A stretch of 64,000 bases of DNA, taken from contig CAWHHI010000016.1 in the NCBI GenBank assembly GCA_963829055.1, positions 64,001-128,000 of the forward strand. Direction: 5' to 3'. The stretch comes from an uncultured Gemmatimonadaceae bacterium. GTDB taxonomy: Bacteria; Gemmatimonadota; Gemmatimonadetes; Gemmatimonadales; Gemmatimonadaceae. Under the pieces are notes generated by a model, which was given only the letters and a program-made list of their open reading frames with translations, was not told the origin of the DNA and ran no database searches. A program made the position numbers and the translations under genes. Below are positions 9,108-50,256 of the stretch, piece after piece (the stretch's first letter is position 1; every line of letters starts with the position of its first letter).

Positions 9108-9212
9108 GCTGGTTGCTGGGTGGTCGTGCTTGTTGCTGGGTGACGCTGAGTGAGAGCACCCAGCCCGCACCCAGCGTCACCCAGCCACCAGCACACACAC
9201 CCAGCCACCAGC
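9108..9212. repeat. Family C inverted-repeat element (GCTGGTTGCTGGG...CCCAGCCACCAGC)
   Basis: Two ~40-bp inverted arms between hppD and hmgA. Confidence 0.85.
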
Positions 9213-10443: not shown

Positions 10444-10556
10444 AGCTATCAGCTAGCAGCCATCAGCCATCAGCTAACTGCCTCGCGACATCGTCCGTCT
10501 CGACCAGGAAGATCCCGCCGTTTGAGCTGATGGCAGATGGCTGATGGCTGCTAGCT
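10444..10556. repeat. Inverted heptamer-repeat element (AGCCATC)n...(GATGGCT)n
   Basis: agctatcagctagcagccatcagccatcagct versus agctgatggcagatggctgatggctgctagct. Confidence 0.75.
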
Positions 10557-11342
10557 TCTTTTCTCAAACGCCGCGATCGCGTTGCGTGTGAAGTCCGAAA
10601 GGACGAGCGTGCCGCTCATCGCGGCGCGTTCTTCGAGCAGCCGGTCCCAGTTGTCCGTGCCTTCCCAGAGCGCCTGCTTGAGCTGCGTGATCGCGTCCGG
10701 GTTGTACGTCGCGAGCTTGTGCGAGACCGTGCCTAACACCTGATCCAGCGCGGGGAGGTTGTCGCAGATCCGCGTGTAGAGCCCGCGCGCGAGGCACCAC
10801 GCGGCGTCTCTCCAGTCCGCGTCGAGCGCGAACGCGGAGAAAGGCCCCGGCCCGATCTTCCGCTCGATGACCGGCCCGACGACGAACGGCCCGATGCCAA
10901 CGGCGAGCTCGCTCAGGCGAGCCGGCGCCTCCGGCACCGCGAGCACGTAGTCAGACGCAGCGACGATGCCGACGCCGCCGCCCACGACCTTGCCCTGCAC
11001 TCGACAGATGATCGGCTTCGGGCATCGGCGCATCGCCAGGATCACGCGCGCGAAGCCCATGAAGAATTCCTTGCCGGCCTCAGGTGAGTCGATGCGCTTG
11101 AGCTCGTCGAATGAGGCGCCGGCGCAGAACGACCCCGCGCCCTCGCTCCGGATCACGACCACGCGCGTCGCCGGGTGCTTGCTCACAGACGTGATGCGGC
11201 CGGCAATGTCATTTAGTAGGACGGCGGGGAGCGAATTACCCTTCGGGTGGTAGAAGGAGACGGTCGCGATCCCATCGGTGATCGAGCACGTGACGACGCC
11301 GGAACCGACGGCCTGCGAGCTCGCGGGAGTAGGTGTGAGCAT
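10551..11342 (-). CDS. Enoyl-CoA hydratase/isomerase family protein
   Basis: FCAGASFDEL, GKVVGGGVGIVAASD, LSELAVGIGP. Confidence 0.9.
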   Translation of the reverse strand: MLTPTPASSQAVGSGVVTCSITDGIATVSFYHPKGNSLPAVLLNDIAGRITSVSKHPATRVVVIRSEGAGSFCAGASFDELKRIDSPEAGKEFFMGFARVILAMRRCPKPIICRVQGKVVGGGVGIVAASDYVLAVPEAPARLSELAVGIGPFVVGPVIERKIGPGPFSAFALDADWRDAAWCLARGLYTRICDNLPALDQVLGTVSHKLATYNPDAITQLKQALWEGTDNWDRLLEERAAMSGTLVLSDFTRNAIAAFEKRS

Positions 11343-12984: not shown

Positions 12985-13807
12985 TTGGTAACCGAACTGC
13001 CGGCTGACAGCTGGGTCGCGGGCGCGCGGCCGACGACCGCCACGTCCGGCGTTACCGAGAACCCGCTCTTCGAGTACCTCCTGCGCCTCGCGGACGATCG
13101 ACTGGTCCTCGGCCACCGACTCTCGGAGTGGTGTGGCCACGGCCCGATTCTCGAGGAGGACATCGCGCTCGCGAACATTGCGCTCGACTTCATTGGCCAG
13201 GCGTCGATGCTGCTCAAGCTCGCTGGCGAGGTCGAAGGGAAGGGGCGAACCGACGACATGCTCGCGTACTTCCGCGACGCCATCGAGTTCCGCAACGTGC
13301 AGCTGGTCGAGCTGCCTAACGGCGATTTCGCCACGACGATCGTCCGTCAGTTCCTGTTCGACGCCTGGGACGTGCTGGTGCTCGAGCGGTCTGACGAGCG
13401 CGACGAACGAACAGCTCGCTGGGATCGCGGCCAAGGCGCTCAAGGAGGCGAAGTACCATCTTCGCCACAGCGCGGAGTGGGTGCGAATGCTTGGCGACGG
13501 AACGGTTGAGAGTCACCGTCGCGCACAGCAGGCGCTCGACGCGCTGTGGCCGTACACCACCGAGCTCTTTCTCACGGACGACATCGACCGTCAGGCCGTG
13601 GCGGCAGGTGTCGGCGTAGACGTCGAGTCGCTTCGTCCGCGGTGGCGGCAGATGGTCGAGCAGGTGTTCGGCGAGGCGACGCTGACGATCCCGAAGGACG
13701 GATTCGCGCCGCGCGGCGGACGGATGGGACGCCACACGGAGCACCTCGGCCGGATGCTGGCTGACATGCAGAGCCTCGCCCGCGCGCACCCGGGGGCAAC
13801 GTGGTGA
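12985..13807 (+). CDS. paaC: Phenylacetyl-CoA epoxidase subunit C (frameshift ~13388; start uncertain)
   Basis: [49 protein letters not shown]. Confidence 0.93.
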
Positions 13808-14301
13808 GCGTCGCCGAGTCGCGGCGCGACGAGATTCTTCGCTGGCTCGACGAGGTGAAGGATCCGGAGGTGCCGGTGCTGAGCATCCGCGAGCTGGGTG
13901 TGCTGCGCGATGTGGAGGTGTCCGACGACGGCGTGGTGGTCGTGATGACACCGACGTACTCCGGCTGCCCCGCCATGCACGCGATGGAGACCGAGGTCGT
14001 GCAGACGCTCGCGAGCCACGGCGTGCCTAACGCGCGCGTCAGGACGGTGTACTCGCCGGCCTGGACGACCGACTGGATGTCGGACGAGGCGAAGGCGAAG
14101 CTCGAAGCGTACGGTATCGCCGCGCCCGATCGATTGGAGTCGGACGATCTCGTGCCGCTGCGTCGACGCGTGGCGGTGCGGTGCCCGTACTGCCAGTCGG
14201 TGAACACGATCATGCGCAGCGAATTCGGATCGACGGCGTGTAAGGCGATCCTGTTCTGCAACAGCTGCCACCAACCCTTCGAGCAATTCAAGGCCATCTG
14301 A
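13804..14301 (+). CDS. paaD: Phenylacetyl-CoA epoxidase subunit D
   Basis: DPEVPVLSI, TPTYSGCPA, PAWTTDW, CPYC...FGSTACKA, CHQPFEQFK. Confidence 0.95.
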   Translation: MSVAESRRDEILRWLDEVKDPEVPVLSIRELGVLRDVEVSDDGVVVVMTPTYSGCPAMHAMETEVVQTLASHGVPNARVRTVYSPAWTTDWMSDEAKAKLEAYGIAAPDRLESDDLVPLRRRVAVRCPYCQSVNTIMRSEFGSTACKAILFCNSCHQPFEQFKAI

Positions 14302-14923: not shown

Positions 14924-15625
14924 TCACAAGGTTCGCGCACGCTCGATCTCCGCGAGGTTCGGCAGCAGCTTCGCCTCATCGAGCAGCGAGACGATCCGCT
15001 TTCTGATCGAGCGGAGCAGCGGCAGCCGCGCAATCTTGAACGTTGCCACGATCAGGCCAATCGCCCCGGTTGAAAGCGCCACCGTGCGCCGGCCGTTAGG
15101 CGACCGGTCGTGAAGGAAGAATAGCAACAGGCCCATGTGAAGCGCCCACAGCGCGACTGGAGCGAGTCGTGCGACGTCTTCGGGGAGATGCTCGTCGCCG
15201 AGCGCAATGGAGAACGCCGCCATGCTTTCGAGCCGGTGCTGGCGCAGCGGTGCGCCAAAGAATGAAAGCGGGTGCGTCGGATCGCCAGCGTAGCGGAGCA
15301 GGGCCCCCATGAGCGGCCGGTCGTCGCGGAGGATCTCGATCTTGCTGTGCAGCGCGATGGCGAGCCTGGCGGCGAGCGGTTTGTCGTTGGTCGCCTCGTT
15401 CGCGACCCGCCGGGTGTGCTCCTTCGAGACGCGATCGTAGTACGCGAGCACGATGGCGTCCTTGCTGGGGAAGTAGTGATACGCGGCGCCGAGCGACATC
15501 TCCGCGGCGGCGGCAATATCGCGCATCGTGGTCGCGTCGAACCCCCGGCTCCGAAAAAGCGTTAGGGCGGCGTTGTAGATGCGGTCTCGGGTGTCTTCGC
15601 CCTTCGCGGTGACTGTTTTGAACAT
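14924..15625 (-). CDS. TetR/AcrR family transcriptional regulator
   Basis: TRDRIYNAALTLF..GFDATTMRDIA...SLGAAYHYFPSKD helix-turn-helix. Confidence 0.92.
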   Translation of the reverse strand: MFKTVTAKGEDTRDRIYNAALTLFRSRGFDATTMRDIAAAAEMSLGAAYHYFPSKDAIVLAYYDRVSKEHTRRVANEATNDKPLAARLAIALHSKIEILRDDRPLMGALLRYAGDPTHPLSFFGAPLRQHRLESMAAFSIALGDEHLPEDVARLAPVALWALHMGLLLFFLHDRSPNGRRTVALSTGAIGLIVATFKIARLPLLRSIRKRIVSLLDEAKLLPNLAEIERARTL

Positions 15626-15725
15626 GTTCAATATCGGAACGGCCGGATCATTCGTCAAGAGCCAATGTTGAACATGTTCAAGACATGAATTGAACGTGTT
15701 CAACTCAGTCTTTGAACACGTTCAA
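15618..15725. promoter_or_regulatory. Four 14-bp palindromic operators TTGAACRYGTTCAA
   Basis: Copies at 15618, 15668, 15690 and 15712; the first overlaps the TetR start codon. Confidence 0.85.
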
Positions 15726-15792: not shown

Positions 15793-16316
15793 GGCGCCGG
15801 GGTCGGTGAGAACTACGATGGCGCGGATGACGCAGAAACGGCCGGATCGACCAACCTGGCTACCCAGCGCACATTGGCTGGCGTCGACGAGAACTCACCG
15901 CGAAGGTGATTGGCGCGTTCTACGACGGTGTACAACACGCTCGGCTATGGATTTCGCGAAGTCCGTGTACACGCGCGCACTGGCGCTGGAACTGCGGCGG
16001 CGAGGCTTGCGCGTAGAGCGCGAGGTGTGGATCGCCGTGTACTACAAAGGCGAAGTCAGGTCGGCTCGCTATCGCATCGACATGCTGGTCGAAGGCTGCG
16101 TTGTGCTGGAGATCAAGGCGACAGTCGCACTGGCGCCAAGCGATCGGGACCAACTCCTGAATTACCTTCGCGGTAGCCGTCTCGAGGTCGGACTGCTCCT
16201 GCATTTCGGACCGCGCCCAACCTTCCAGCGCGTCGTCGCCGAGAACGCCCGATCGTGCAGATCCGGCCGTTTCCGCGTCTTCCGCGCCATCGCAGTTCCC
16301 ACCGGCCCCGGAGCGA
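15793..16316. mobile_element. Putative element: GxxExxY gene bounded by ~55-bp inverted repeats (family D)
   Basis: Left gcgccggggtcggtgagaactacgatggcgcggatgacgcagaaacggccggatc; the right arm at 16259-16316 is its near reverse complement. Confidence 0.65.
15874..16257 (+). pseudogene. GxxExxY (PD-(D/E)XK-like) protein with several frameshifts; ends approximate
   Basis: Joined frames give ELTAKVIGAFYD-VYNTLGYGFRE-SVYTRAL...RIDMLVEG..VLEIKA...QLLNYLRGSRLEVGLLLHFG. Confidence 0.82.
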
Positions 16317-16326
16317 TGAGCTGGCC

Positions 16327-18459
16327 TCAGGTGGAGAGCAGCGCCGCAATCCGATCCGCGATTCGGTCCGCGTCCGGGAGCACGGCCTCGAGCAGCGACG
16401 GGTGATAGGGCATCGGCACATCCGCGACCGCCAGACGGTCCACCGGAGCATCCAAAGCCCAGAAAGCCTCACGCCCCACCACCGCCGCGATCTCGGCACC
16501 GAAGCCCGCCGTGATCGTGTCCTCGTGCACGATCAGGCAGCGCGACGTTTTCCGCACCGAATCGAGCACCGCCTCGCGGTCCCACGGCGCAACGGTCCGC
16601 AGATCGAAGAGCTCCACCACGCCGTCGCCGAAGCGCGCGGCCGCTTCGGCGCAGCGGTGCACCATCGCGCCCCAGCTCACCACCGTGATGTCCTTGCCCT
16701 CGCGCAGGCGCGCGGCCCTGCCGAACGGCAACACGTAGTCGTCGCCGGGATAGCGCGCGCTGCCGTCGCTCGTCATGAGCAGCGATCGGTGCTCGAAGAA
16801 GATCGTCGGATTGCGACTGCGCATCGCCGCTCGCAGGAGCCCGACGGCGTCCGCCGCGTTCGACGGGATCGCCACCTGCCAGCCTAACGCGTGCGCCCAC
16901 GTCACCTCGGCGCTCAACGAGTGCCACGGGTCGCCGACGTCCTTGCCGTACCCGCCCGGCATCCGCACGACGATCGGCGCGCAGAAGCGGTTCGCCGTGC
17001 GCCAGCGCATCGTGCCGCAGTTGTTGAGCTGCTCGTGTGCGGGGTCCGCGTACTTGCGGAACTGGATCTCGGCAACGGGGACGAGGCCGGCGATGGCCAT
17101 GCCGACGGCACGGCCAATGATGCCTTCCTCGGACAGGCTCGTGTCGAACACGCGAGCGGCGCCGAACTGCTTCTGCAGGCCCTCGGTCACGAGGTGCACG
17201 CCGCCCTTCACGCCCACGTCCTCGCCGAACACCGCGACTTTCGGATTTCGCTCGAGCTCGGAGCGCAGCGTGCGCTTGATCGCCTCCGCGAATCGCACGA
17301 CCTCGCCGCTGTCGCTCGGGACGTCGGTTCCACCGAGCGCGTCACGCTCCTCGTCGGAGAGACCGCCTAACGGCACAGTGTCGCCCGGCTGGACGGGCTC
17401 CTCGTATACGAAGCGATGAATCGTCGCGGGGTCAGGCGCCGGACGCGCACGCGCGCCGTCCAGTCCCCGCTTCACGTCGCGCGCGACTTCTGCCTCCAGA
17501 TCAGCCCAGTCCGCCTGGTTCATGAACTCCGGCACCAGGTGCTCCCGGAGACGCGGAAGCGGATCGCGCGCGCTGTCGGCGGCGATCTCGGCTTCGGTGC
17601 GGTAGCCCTTCTGGTTGTCTGGCCCCGAGTGGGAGGAGAGCCGGGGGACCGTGAGGTGAATCAGGGCGGGGCCGACGCCGGAGCGGACGTGATCCACCGC
17701 ATCGCCTAACAACCGCGCCGACTCGTCAGGATCGCACCCGTCGCCATCGCGGATGAGCAGGTTGGCAAAAGACGCCAGGTTCCGCGCGATGTTGCCGCCC
17801 GGAGTCTGCATCTCACCCTTGACCGAGATGCCGAGTCCGTTGTCCTCGATGTAAAACAGCATCGGGAGCTTCAGCGTCGTCGCCATCGTGAGCGCGGACC
17901 AGAAGCCGTTCGTCGCCACCGACGCTTCGCCACCAAGAGCAACCGCTATCGCGCCGCGGTATGACGCGTCGCCGAGCACGTCGCGATGATACGTGATGGC
18001 CTGGGCCCAGCCGGCGGCGGGCGTGTACTGCGATCCTACGTCGCCGGACATCGGCAGGACGACGGTGCCGTTGCGGTTAGGCAGGTTGCAGACGACACCG
18101 ATATCGCGGCCATCGCTGAATCCGCCGGAGCGACCGAGCGGGCTGGCGAGCGCGTCCTCGATCGAGAGGCCGATGGAGAGCAACAGCGGGCGCGATCGGT
18201 AGTACGCTCCGACGCCATCGTGCGCGTGGTCGAGCATCGATCCCAGAATCGTCTGCGCCACGTCGTGGCCGCGCGCCGAGAACTGGTAGAGCACGAGGTG
18301 CTCGCGCGGGACGGTCGCCCGGTTGCGATTCGTCGTCTCCTCGGCGTCATCGAGCGCGCGCGAGACGAGCGAGTTGTACGCGATGGCGCGCCAATCGATG
18401 GAACGACTGGTCGCCTTGGGACGAGCGGATTTGGCCTTGGCAGGGGAGCGAACGGGCAT
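16327..18459 (-). CDS. Fused E1 alpha/beta 2-oxoacid dehydrogenase (TPP-dependent)
   Basis: IEDNGLGIS, RLSSHS, FGEDVG..GGV, VFDTSLSEEGIIG, AEIQF, FFEHR, DLRTVAPWD. Confidence 0.9.
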   Translation of the reverse strand: MPVRSPAKAKSARPKATSRSIDWRAIAYNSLVSRALDDAEETTNRNRATVPREHLVLYQFSARGHDVAQTILGSMLDHAHDGVGAYYRSRPLLLSIGLSIEDALASPLGRSGGFSDGRDIGVVCNLPNRNGTVVLPMSGDVGSQYTPAAGWAQAITYHRDVLGDASYRGAIAVALGGEASVATNGFWSALTMATTLKLPMLFYIEDNGLGISVKGEMQTPGGNIARNLASFANLLIRDGDGCDPDESARLLGDAVDHVRSGVGPALIHLTVPRLSSHSGPDNQKGYRTEAEIAADSARDPLPRLREHLVPEFMNQADWADLEAEVARDVKRGLDGARARPAPDPATIHRFVYEEPVQPGDTVPLGGLSDEERDALGGTDVPSDSGEVVRFAEAIKRTLRSELERNPKVAVFGEDVGVKGGVHLVTEGLQKQFGAARVFDTSLSEEGIIGRAVGMAIAGLVPVAEIQFRKYADPAHEQLNNCGTMRWRTANRFCAPIVVRMPGGYGKDVGDPWHSLSAEVTWAHALGWQVAIPSNAADAVGLLRAAMRSRNPTIFFEHRSLLMTSDGSARYPGDDYVLPFGRAARLREGKDITVVSWGAMVHRCAEAAARFGDGVVELFDLRTVAPWDREAVLDSVRKTSRCLIVHEDTITAGFGAEIAAVVGREAFWALDAPVDRLAVADVPMPYHPSLLEAVLPDADRIADRIAALLST

Positions 18460-18525: not shown

Positions 18526-18694
18526 CCAGCGGCAGCTGGTGGCTGGTCGCTCGTGCTGGTCGCTGGTCGTGGCCGGTCGTTCCGACCTGTAGTGGTGCTT
18601 CGGATAGACGGCGTGCAGCTTTGCTGGCGATTCGCAACCGCGACCGGCCTACCCCTGACGCGCGAGAGGCGCGGCTGCGATGGATCTGAACGAA

Positions 18695-20999
18695 ATGCAA
18701 CCGAATCGTCGACAAATCCTACGTCGCGCGCTACCACTCGCTGCGGTCGTCGCGTGTGCCGCAGCGTACACCGGCACGATTGGCAGAGCGGACGCCGGAC
18801 CAGCTGGCGCGGTCGCGCCGGACTCCGCGCTGCTCCAGCGCATGCTGAACGCCGAGGATTCCCGCGTAAGTGACTCCGCGTCCCTCGCGCCGCTGTTCGA
18901 GGGAATGCGCAGCGCCGACGTCACGACGCGCCGCATCGCCACGCGGGCGATCGGGCGGCTCGAGCGCAGCGACTACATGAGCGTCCTCGAGCCGATGCTC
19001 ACCGACCCGTCGCCTGCCGTTCGCGCCGAGGCGGTGAACGCGTTAGCGCAGATCGCGCGCGCGAGCGTCGTGAATGCGCCGGCCAGCGACGAGTCGCGCA
19101 TGCGCCTCGCCATGAGTGCGCAGGGATTGATTCGCGGTCTGCTCGCTGGCGAGAGCGATCCAGTCGTTCGAGGCAGCATAGCGCGTTCGCTGGGGCGACT
19201 CCCATACCCGAGCGAGGAAGTCGCTCGTGCCGCGGCTGAGTCGATCGCGTCGATCACGGATGGGATGCCAAGCGACGGCGCGCTGGCCCGCGAACCGTGG
19301 TTCGGCGTGGTGCACGGGATCGACGACCTTCTCCGTCGCTTTCCCGGAGTACGCACCGCGCCGGCGGTACAGCGCATCGCGGCGCTGCCTCGCGTTCCCA
19401 CCGTCGCGAACGCCGGTTCTACGGGCTCCACGAGCGACAGCGGATGGTCGCGAGAGACGAACGTCATGCTCGCGGCCGTTCGGGGACGAGTCCTCGGCGC
19501 CGCGGTCGGCACGGCGAAGGCCGTCGATGAGGCGACGGCACGCAGCGTCGGCGCGCGTTTCCTCAGCGATTTCGGCGACGCCGATCCGCAGGTTCGACGT
19601 CAGGTCGTGGCCCTGCTCGCGGTCGCGGGGGCCGTTGATGAGTCGTCCCGTGCACGAGTCGTGACCGCCGCGCTCGGCGATCCATCGTTCAGCGTGCGAT
19701 TCGAGGCCGTTCGTGCGTACGCGCGGCGGCACAGTACCGGGTGTGCGCCGCTCATCACGGCGACCCGCGACGCGAGTGCGCACGTGGCCATCGCCGCGAT
19801 CGATGCACTGGCAACGCCGTGCGACTCGTCCGGCGCGGCTGTTGTTCGGCTCGCGCAGCTCGTGCGAGACCTTCCCCGTACGGCGACAGCGCGTTCAGGA
19901 ACGCGGGGAAGTTGGCACGCCGGCGCCCACGCGCTCGTCGCCCTCGCGCAGCTGGCGCCGGATTCGGCGCGCGCGTCAGCGTCGCGCCTCGCGAGCCATC
20001 CGGTGTGGCAGGTTCGCATGTACGCGGCTCGCGCGGCGGGTGAGCTCGTAGACACCGTCACGCTCGCGAAGCTCGCGAGCGACACGACGGACAACGTGCG
20101 AGACGCCGCGGTCAACGCACTTGCGGCGTTGATTCGGCCGCCGCGCGGCACCAACAACCGTCCACGGATCGAGCGGACTGAGAAGATCGACTCGCTCTTC
20201 ACCGCGCAGTTGGCGCACACGGATCATCAGCTCGTGCTGGATGCCGCGAGGGCGCTCGAGGGCGGTCGATCGTCGGCGAAGCTGGCGGACGCTCTGTTCG
20301 CATCGCTCGCCCGGCTCACGGCGCGGCAGAGTGAAAACTCGCGCGATCCGCGAATGGAGTTGCTCGCGCGCATCGAGACCATGGTGGAGGGCAGCAACCA
20401 CGCGCTCGCGCATCCAGCCGTACCTGAGCGACTACGATCCGGCAATCGCGGAACGGGCCGCGCAGCTCCTTCGGAAGTGGGGCGTGCCGACGGCCGCGGC
20501 CACGCCGCGTCGGTTTCAACCCATGCCGGTCTCGCTCTCGGAGATGGGTCGACTGCGGAACGCGCGCCTGCGCGTCACCATGGCGCCCGAATCTGGCGGT
20601 GGGTCGTTCGAGATGCGGCTGCTCGTCGACGATGCACCCGCGAGCGTGAATCGCCTCGTCACGCTGGCGCGCATGGGCTACTACAACAAGCTCACGTTCC
20701 ATCGGGTGGAGACGAACTTCGTGATCCAGGGCGGCAGCCCCGGCGCGAACGAATACGTCGGCGCGCAACGCTTCATGCGCGACGAGCTCGGGCTCCCTTC
20801 GCACGAGCGTGGCACGGTCGGGATCTCGACTCGCGGGCGCGACACGGGCGACGCGCAGATCTTCGTGAACCTCATCGACAACTGGCGCCTCGATCACGAT
20901 TACACCGTGCTCGCGGACGTGGTGCGCGGGATGGACGTGGTGGACGCAATCCTGGAAGGCGACGTGATCGCGCGCATGGAGATCGTCGGGGGGCGCTGA
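18695..20999 (+). CDS. Secreted HEAT-repeat protein with C-terminal cyclophilin PPIase domain (frameshift ~20410)
   Basis: DPSPAVRAEAVNAL-type repeats; FHRVETNFVIQGG, RGTVGISTRGRDTGDAQIF. Confidence 0.85.
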
Positions 21000-21109
21000 A
21001 CCAGGCTCGGTGGTGTGTGGTGGCGGTCGTGAGCGACTAGCTTTCGCGCGTCCGTGCGAGCGGCGCACGGGGTAGTAACGTCGCCCTCATGATTTCGGTC
21101 CGGACCTCC

Positions 21110-24820: not shown

Positions 24821-24825
24821 GATCA

Positions 24826-25231
24826 TCGCGCCGGGGTCGGTGGGAACTGCGATTGGGCGGATCTGTACTGCGAAACTACCGGATACGGCTTTGCATTCAG
24901 GCATCACGGCGCCGGGGTCGGTGGGAACTGCGATTTTGCGGATGACACGGAAAACGGCCGGATACCGCTTTGCATTGACACTGGCTCTCGCCGGACTCTG
25001 AACTAATAGGAACGGCCGCTCGGGACGCAGGAGTCTCCCGAGCGGCCGTCCCCAAAAATCCGGCCCGCTGCGCGAGGCGCCGTCCCGAGCGCGATCGATC
25101 CTGCTTCTTCCGCGTCATCCGCGCGATCGCAGTTCCATTGGCCGGGCGCGATGATGCGTGGATGCAAAGCAGGATCCGGCTGTTTTGCAGTTCATCCGCA
25201 AAATCGTAGTTCTCACCGGCCCCGGCGCGAC
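24826..25231. repeat. Cluster of four family D repeats (two forward, two reverse) around a hairpin
   Basis: gcgccggggtcggtgggaactgcgat at ~24828 and ~24909; reverse copies at ~25096-25150 and ~25161-25231; hairpin 25009-25052. Confidence 0.85.
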
Positions 25232-25254
25232 GATGCCTGGGATGCGAGCAACGG

Positions 25255-50075: not shown

Positions 50076-50086
50076 CAACTGCAGCA

Positions 50087-50256
50087 GCTGGTTGCTGGGT
50101 GCTCGTGCTTGTTGCTGGGTGACGCTGGTGAAGTGCGAAGGGCGCGAACGGACAGCAACGGGGTCCGAGTCGATTCGACTCGGACCCCGTTCGTCGTTCG
50201 CGCGTTGCACTTCAGCGTCACCCAGCAACAAGCACACGCACCCAGCAACCAGCTGG
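50087..50256. repeat. Family C element forming a ~170-bp imperfect palindrome
   Basis: Outer gctggttgctggg/cccagcaaccagc arms; core aacggggtccgagtcga-t-tcgactcggaccccgtt. Confidence 0.88.

Follow-up and report, generated by a model that had tools for sequence, protein, structure and literature searches.

Background

Insertion sequences (IS) consist of a gene between terminal inverted repeats and are accompanied by shorter, gene-less copies with the same ends (MITEs). Two further types of association between a gene and a dispersed repeat have been described in prokaryotes. The RAYT/REPtron, TIRYT/TIRtron and REPIN systems, as presented in the accounts that we draw on here, each include a mostly inherited, single-copy gene that lies between repeats, with a repeat-specific gene for each family (PMC5581495, PMC3733652). 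The Ssn nucleases, which belong to the GIY-YIG fold (cd10448), cut single-stranded DNA beside their own flanking repeat, and their mobility is only proposed; 71% of the Ssn homologues are given as having the repeat nearby and 42% as having it on both sides (PMC11893778). Outside RAYT, the spread of bacterial extragenic repeats is largely an open problem. The GxxExxY proteins (PF13366) form a common family to which no function has been assigned; the passage on this family (PDDEXK_3) in PMC3424549 lists the function as unknown, reports multiple transfers and does not mention flanking repeats. In the openly accessible main texts covered by our literature search, we did not come across any account of repeats that flank GxxExxY genes.

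Here we analyze a GxxExxY gene from an uncultured bacterium of the family Gemmatimonadaceae. The window, that is, the whole stretch of DNA that was analyzed, comprises 64,000 nucleotides (G000:C16:64001-128000) of a 7.8 Mb genome that is 86% complete.

A GxxExxY gene between inverted repeats in the paa region

A sequence-only reading of the window had placed a GxxExxY gene between two inverted repeats of about 55 bp within the paa region, and both the arrangement and the context proved correct. The features of the locus are as follows:

15794..15848, plus strand: left arm, one family A unit with four phased, inward-pointing motifs of the C-x-G-A-T type at 9-10 bp spacing
15882..16249, plus strand: GxxExxY (PF13366/TIGR04256) gene, predicted PD-(D/E)XK fold, in three frames as assembled
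16260..16314, minus strand: right arm, an inverted family A unit that ends 12 bp short of the E1 stop codon at 16327

The two arms, of 55 nt each and 411 nt apart, are 89% complementary and yield a local-alignment score of 80; a score of 34 is reached by 3 of 1000 random genome positions of equal geometry. The DNA between them matches PF13366 in a Pfam scan (E 3e-25; 89.3 bits, with a cut-off of 22) and TIGR04256, the GxxExxY model (E 8.6e-26; 90.6 bits, with a cut-off of 35). The neighboring genes are paaD (13801-14301), tetR and E1, the paa names being assigned from the translations. A promoter-like site for the window gene was looked for and not found. Around the start of tetR (window 15618-15725), there are four copies of a 14-bp palindrome, likely TetR operators, of which the relatives G001-G004 have two.

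As assembled, the gene runs through three frames (15882-15926, 15931-15957 and 15962-16249). The frame shifts by +1 near 15927-30 and again near 15958-62, and comparison with relatives reveals three in-frame extra bases near 16055-68. The C-terminal frame retains intact D..E-I-K, in agreement with the nuclease-like residues that had been noted from the sequence, and Q..NY. The motif that had been read as G-F-R-E-S-V-Y is contiguous in no frame and had been stitched across a frameshift; the GxxExxY motif is contiguous, in an intact frame, in G002, G003 and G004 and is split in the window copy as assembled. In contigs that four runs yielded for close relatives, the extra bases at 15962, 16055-56 and 16068 are absent, as are several others around the gene; these places, unlike the break near 15927, are thereby shown directly. 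One such contig differs from the window at 31 positions within 15985-16340 and at just 4 further positions in the adjoining 340 bp of E1, so the divergence between close relatives is far greater in the cassette than in its flank. About ten places with extra bases fall within the 580 bp of the cassette region, compared with 2 frame-shifting insertions in 5,985 bp of neighboring genes, which rules out poor assembly across the genome as the sole cause of the frameshifts. Given this concentration at the cassette, the cause is local, either a poor consensus of mixed alleles or strain-specific decay, and the copy that is broken as assembled may be intact in nature. The paaC-like gene (window 12985-13807) and the HEAT-repeat gene (18680-21040) each contain one frame-shifting insertion that is absent in three relatives. 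A single read joint that skips the GxxExxY gene was discarded; one of its sides is just 24 nt long and it probably comes from another copy of the repeat.

The structural model of the homolog from G004 (pLDDT 90) is most similar to the Cas4 protein SSO0001 (Foldseek E 1e-3) and to RecB-type and restriction nucleases, with modest scores; the best Z is 7.8 (rmsd 2.2, 85 aligned), and the top matches are almost all restriction-like. On the strength of this model, the family of the window gene product is predicted to adopt a restriction-like PD-(D/E)XK fold with a D..ExK signature. Sequence searches of the PDB yielded no relevant solved relative, and single-sequence structure prediction was unusable (pLDDT 39).

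The repeat family of the arms

Searching the genome with a profile built from the window arm, we detected 201 units in 70 clusters (hereafter, family A), in accord with the expectation that the arms are members of a genome-wide repeat family. In the usual form, one or two inward units are followed by a conserved core of ~133 bp with a strong central hairpin and then by one or two inverted units; tandem units recur with a period of about 79 bp. The window itself contains such an element:

24822..25235, no strand assigned: gene-less family A element with two arms, a 131-bp hairpin core and two inverted arms

Only one family A cluster has an inner gap of 410 bp, and it is this gap that contains the window gene; elsewhere, the gap typically measures 128-145 bp or is occupied by repeat DNA. 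The window arms are ordinary members of the family, with a mean identity of 77% to the other units (78% for all pairs). Across the 201 units, conservation peaks at the four motifs of the C-x-G-A-T type that are 9-10 bp apart, with 94-100% conservation at the motif positions versus values down to 37-70% at positions of the variable spacers. Conserved motifs one helical turn apart, separated by free spacers, form the pattern that a sequence-specific DNA-binding protein would impose, and the phase suggests binding on one face of duplex DNA. A unit is 55-65 nt long and its own hairpin, at the outer end, is just 5 bp; the whole arm-core-arm element folds into a long hairpin. A coarse proxy for open reading frames, which covers 52% of the genome, gave no frame that spans a family A cluster and placed a stop codon within 150 bp of 43 of the 70 clusters.

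Across 63 elements, we found no target-site duplication: the longest repeat averages 4.81, compared with 4.76 when the flanks are mismatched. The outer ends of the elements are frayed. We therefore reject the IS/MITE identity of the family, a parallel that had been drawn from the layout next to that with RAYT/REP. A DNA search of related genomes with a family A element scored 11 candidates per genome and hence gives presence, not copy number.

Three gene-repeat pairs in one genome

The genome encodes three PF13366 genes, none with a near-identical copy, and each is framed by its own repeat family. Families B (113 units in 54 clusters) and C (55 units in 35 clusters), which frame the two other GxxExxY genes, overlap neither with family A nor with each other. 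The gene on contig C20 is framed by outward-pointing trimers of a 9-mer and the gene on contig C7 by 54-nt arms (72%). A model of the core derived from family A finds 102 places in the genome, of which 63 are in family A, 25 in B, 8 in C and 6 in none of these; the latter six carry related arm types for which no matching gene was found in this 86% complete genome. Given that each gene lies between arms of its own family that are also scattered in gene-less copies, the protein likely recognizes, and would cut at, these repeats. Three pairs of distinct sequence with a shared core in a single genome amount to a ready 3 x 3 test of specificity. The C20 gene (G000:C20:240775) has an apparent frameshift near its start. 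At 270-457, the window contains another gene-less element, with a different phased arm type (CGGAT), for which a matching gene was likewise not found in the 86% complete genome.

Several unrelated genes in this genome are framed by repeats as well. The only PF01797 (Y1, RAYT-like) gene (G000:C20:35020-35346) is bordered by short palindromes in tandem, which are of a separate type. Since these repeats differ from those of family A, we discarded RAYT as the partner of that family. Three PF01541 matches were detected, all away from the window gene. A small GIY-YIG gene (G000:C3:952-1167), framed by a perfect 31-nt inverted repeat, is an Ssn-like candidate; its repeat family is very large, with 201 bins, and a related 13-mer occurs 650 times. 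Four-helix-bundle (PF05635) genes, for example, C8:327916, C3:398372 and C16:412596, have inverted arms made of short-period tandem repeats in 8 of 11 cases, at a score of at least 33 in 330-bp flanks, a length for which the threshold is not calibrated. Most of these repeats have dispersed copies, and gene-less copies are found in the window at 9108-9212, 10444-10559 and 50085-50255. We found no description of repeat-framed four-helix-bundle genes in the literature that was searched. Framing by itself, then, does not imply a nuclease.

These observations bear on the possibility that the arms are mere operators or RNA-level elements, with a protein that either binds them to regulate its own gene or ignores them, and that the repeats spread independently and enclose small genes by chance. 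The framing of several unrelated small gene families, the four-helix-bundle genes among them, is compatible with such passive arms, as are the long hairpin formed by the whole element and the nearby stop codons. This explanation does not readily account for a distinct repeat type for each gene family, for conservation of the motif across phyla at about 50% protein identity or for the loss of arms together with catalytic residues (see below), and we consider it quite improbable.

Framing and co-occurrence across homologs

We collected 115 GxxExxY loci, of which 110 were retained after the exclusion of four with short flanks and one duplicate; Gemmatimonadota are overrepresented in this sample, which also contains some Acidobacteriota, Chloroflexota and others as well as one locus (L032) from an unpublished genome (G013). 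With framing defined as an inverted match scoring at least 34 within 200 bp of both gene ends, 72 of the 110 homologs are framed, versus 0/204 shifted, 8/110 direct-orientation and 44/2000 mismatched-pair controls. Cognate arms at other GxxExxY genes, as had been proposed, are thus present at all three genes in the genome and at the majority of the homologs, which are enriched for flanking repeats. The remaining 38 of the 110 score under 34; among the catalytically intact proteins, 30 of 106 score under 30.

The suggestion that repeats and proteins vary together also found support: in the set of 70 armed genes, the more similar two proteins are, the more similar their arms tend to be (rho 0.41, compared with 0.165 for the best of 999 permutations). 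The last base of the motif follows one deep split in the protein tree, which amounts to a single event. At the level of genomes, at least 10 phased CRGAT trimers, a pattern that detects one motif type only, are present in 11 of the 40 gene-bearing and in 2 of the 80 gene-lacking genomes among 120 genomes of the phylum that are at least 90% complete (Fisher p 9e-5, which is overstated given that related genomes are not independent and that the spacing was chosen after a first trial). Accordingly, the repeats are not equally common in genomes with and without the gene. Fewer than 10 trimers are found in 29 of the 40 gene-bearing genomes, and the two exceptional gene-lacking genomes have 22 and 33. 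The first pattern (N{3,6}), which also matched period-8 tandem repeats, gave 15/33 vs 2/27, G013 included; the N{4,6} spacing was picked afterwards, and the two genome samples overlap.

Arms and catalytic residues appear to be lost jointly. Among 114 proteins, arms are missing in 7 of the 8 with altered E/D/E/K residues versus 30 of the 106 intact ones, a comparison in which the arm-less altered proteins come mostly from one paa-linked clade, six of these rows having been added for their locus, so that kin are not independent. The window protein was counted as intact because its flag as altered came only from the X at its break. Six of the arm-less proteins with altered catalytic residues (L153, L164, L166, L174, L178 and L083), five of which adjoin paaD, possibly represent a repurposed, non-cutting branch. 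Taken together, these observations, namely, one gene for each family, the co-occurrence across genomes and the fact that arms tend to be missing where catalytic residues are altered, suggest that the arms are tied to nuclease activity.

History of the locus

Within the genus, the tetR-E1 site contains the gene with arms of the family A type in G000, G001 and G002, a different, gene-less repeat in G003 and a short remnant in G004, so that gene-free versions of the site, which had been anticipated, do exist. Directly after paaD, the gene with the same arm type is found in G003 and G004, a gene-less arm pair in G002 and nothing in G000; no tetR orthologue was recovered in G005 and G006. Block shuffling as the origin of the two sites is rejected since G002 has the gene order of G003/G004. 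At the DNA level, the window gene is closer to the G003/G004 genes (65% identity) than to the G001 and G002 genes at its own site (57-60%), the opposite of what is seen for host genes. Between G003 and G004, the GxxExxY genes are 68% identical, compared with 87% for host genes, and evolve under purifying selection (pN 0.21 vs pS 0.65).

In other genera, the gene is located within 1.5 kb downstream of paaD at 7 of the 34 paaD loci, and at some loci paaD is joined to E1 within 18, 77 or 155 bp. All 12 paa-linked genes belong to one subtree of 17 rows (support 82, core 95) in a quick tree of weak support, in which the first 15 residues of the window row are in the wrong frame. A second protein lineage (L124, L133) also adjoins paaD. 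Of the seven other-genus paaD-linked genes, the six for which both flanks are available are armless (scores 16-23), and five of these six have altered catalytic residues. The window gene thus belongs to an old paa-linked subtree, yet the distances within the genus are incongruent. This pattern points to an old insertion that was lost many times and was relocated or replaced at least once, and not to frequent hopping.

An autonomous mobile element, in which the gene and its arms would move together and mobilize MITE-like copies, might explain why, under the same gene order, the cassette is at tetR-E1 in G002 and after paaD in G003/G004, why the identities run against those of the host genes, and why a second lineage has come to lie beside paaD. 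The absence of target-site duplications, the frayed ends, the lack of near-identical gene copies and the average identity of only 78% among units all argue to the contrary. The distribution also fits an ancestor in which both sites were occupied, followed by differential loss, given the gene-less arm pair that G002 retains after paaD. We regard such an element as distinctly unlikely, and the term "autonomous partner" that had been applied to the gene is not supported: there is one gene per family, without target duplication, and the paa-linked gene appears to be a long-standing resident that was passed on mainly by descent.

Old residence and purifying selection would be expected also of a domesticated protein with an Ssn-like role, one that cuts at the repeats to modulate recombination or incoming DNA while the repeats spread otherwise or are kept as targets; SsnA modulates transformation (PMC11893778). 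The long association with paaD in other genera and the common subtree of the paa-linked genes agree with this role. However, the genes are patchy (40 of the 120 genomes of the phylum), often broken and faster-diverging than host genes, and the coexistence of three such pairs in this genome is more in line with selfish replicators than with a single host task. We consider domestication unlikely, if somewhat less so than the autonomous element or the passive arms.

A putative nuclease-repeat replicator

The explanation that we favor, and to which we assign about an even chance, is a long-resident nuclease-repeat pair in which the protein binds motifs in its own arms and cuts, and host repair copies the gene-less elements. 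Under this scenario, the GxxExxY protein would likely bind the phased motifs within its arms and nick or cut the DNA there; repair of the cuts by the host would copy gene-less arm-core-arm elements to new intergenic sites; the gene-bearing form would relocate rarely; and the gene might be autoregulated through the left arm. No strand-transfer chemistry is known for a lone PD-(D/E)XK domain, so that copying would require a hypothetical host step. Copying by host repair would fit the absence of target duplications and the frayed, mosaic copies.

More generally, GxxExxY proteins could drive a third and widespread class of intragenomic replicators that depend on a nuclease, next to RAYT/REPIN and Ssn/NTS. 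Each protein would read an array of helically phased motifs of its own and cut at it, leaving host repair to copy hairpin elements around the chromosome, and several non-cross-reacting pairs that share one core would coexist within a genome. This broader proposal is tentative, falling a little short of an even chance. If it is true, a very common family would gain a function, along with a natural panel of sequence-specific nucleases of 120 residues. If each protein does cleave at its own arms, pairing between a nuclease and a repeat would have evolved in no fewer than three unrelated folds, and the site-specific nucleases, being very small, could become available as tools. What this locus adds is the presence, within one genome, of three pairs that have their core in common, the reciprocal sites within the genus, the old residence and the link between the loss of arms and of catalytic residues.

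Comparison with known systems

With IS/MITE pairs, as defined in the text quoted in PMC3733652, the locus has in common a gene between inverted repeats and gene-less copies with the same ends; it differs in the absence of a DDE transposase, target duplication, sharp ends and a multicopy autonomous element, in place of which there are three divergent single genes.

The likeness to RAYT/REP is closer. The window gene is a single-copy gene flanked by a high-copy extragenic repeat, as in REPtrons, and the repeats form extragenic doublets and tandem clusters such as those reported for REPs, target duplication not being found here (PMC5581495, PMC3733652). In contrast to RAYTs, the window gene encodes a PF13366 protein and no HUH/Y1 tyrosine transposase (PF01797), that is, a nuclease without known strand transfer. 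The unit of 55-65 nt is not a tagged REP palindrome of 20-40 bp, and three arm families share the ~133-bp core.

The resemblance to Ssn/NTS/SRM extends to a gene for a small, single-domain nuclease flanked by its own repeat, many gene-less copies and repeats that are specific to each homolog (PMC11893778). For the window gene, copies of its dispersed repeat are indeed present on either side. The fold, however, is PD-(D/E)XK, not GIY-YIG, for which the Pfam scan gave no match to the window gene; the unit consists of successive motifs in a 9-10 bp phase and has just a 5-bp outer hairpin, whereas the Ssn target is a hairpin, and cleavage by the GxxExxY protein is a prediction. The best reading of these comparisons is that GxxExxY proteins and their repeats would form a partnership of the kind seen in RAYT/REP and Ssn/NTS, but built on a third fold, of the restriction type.
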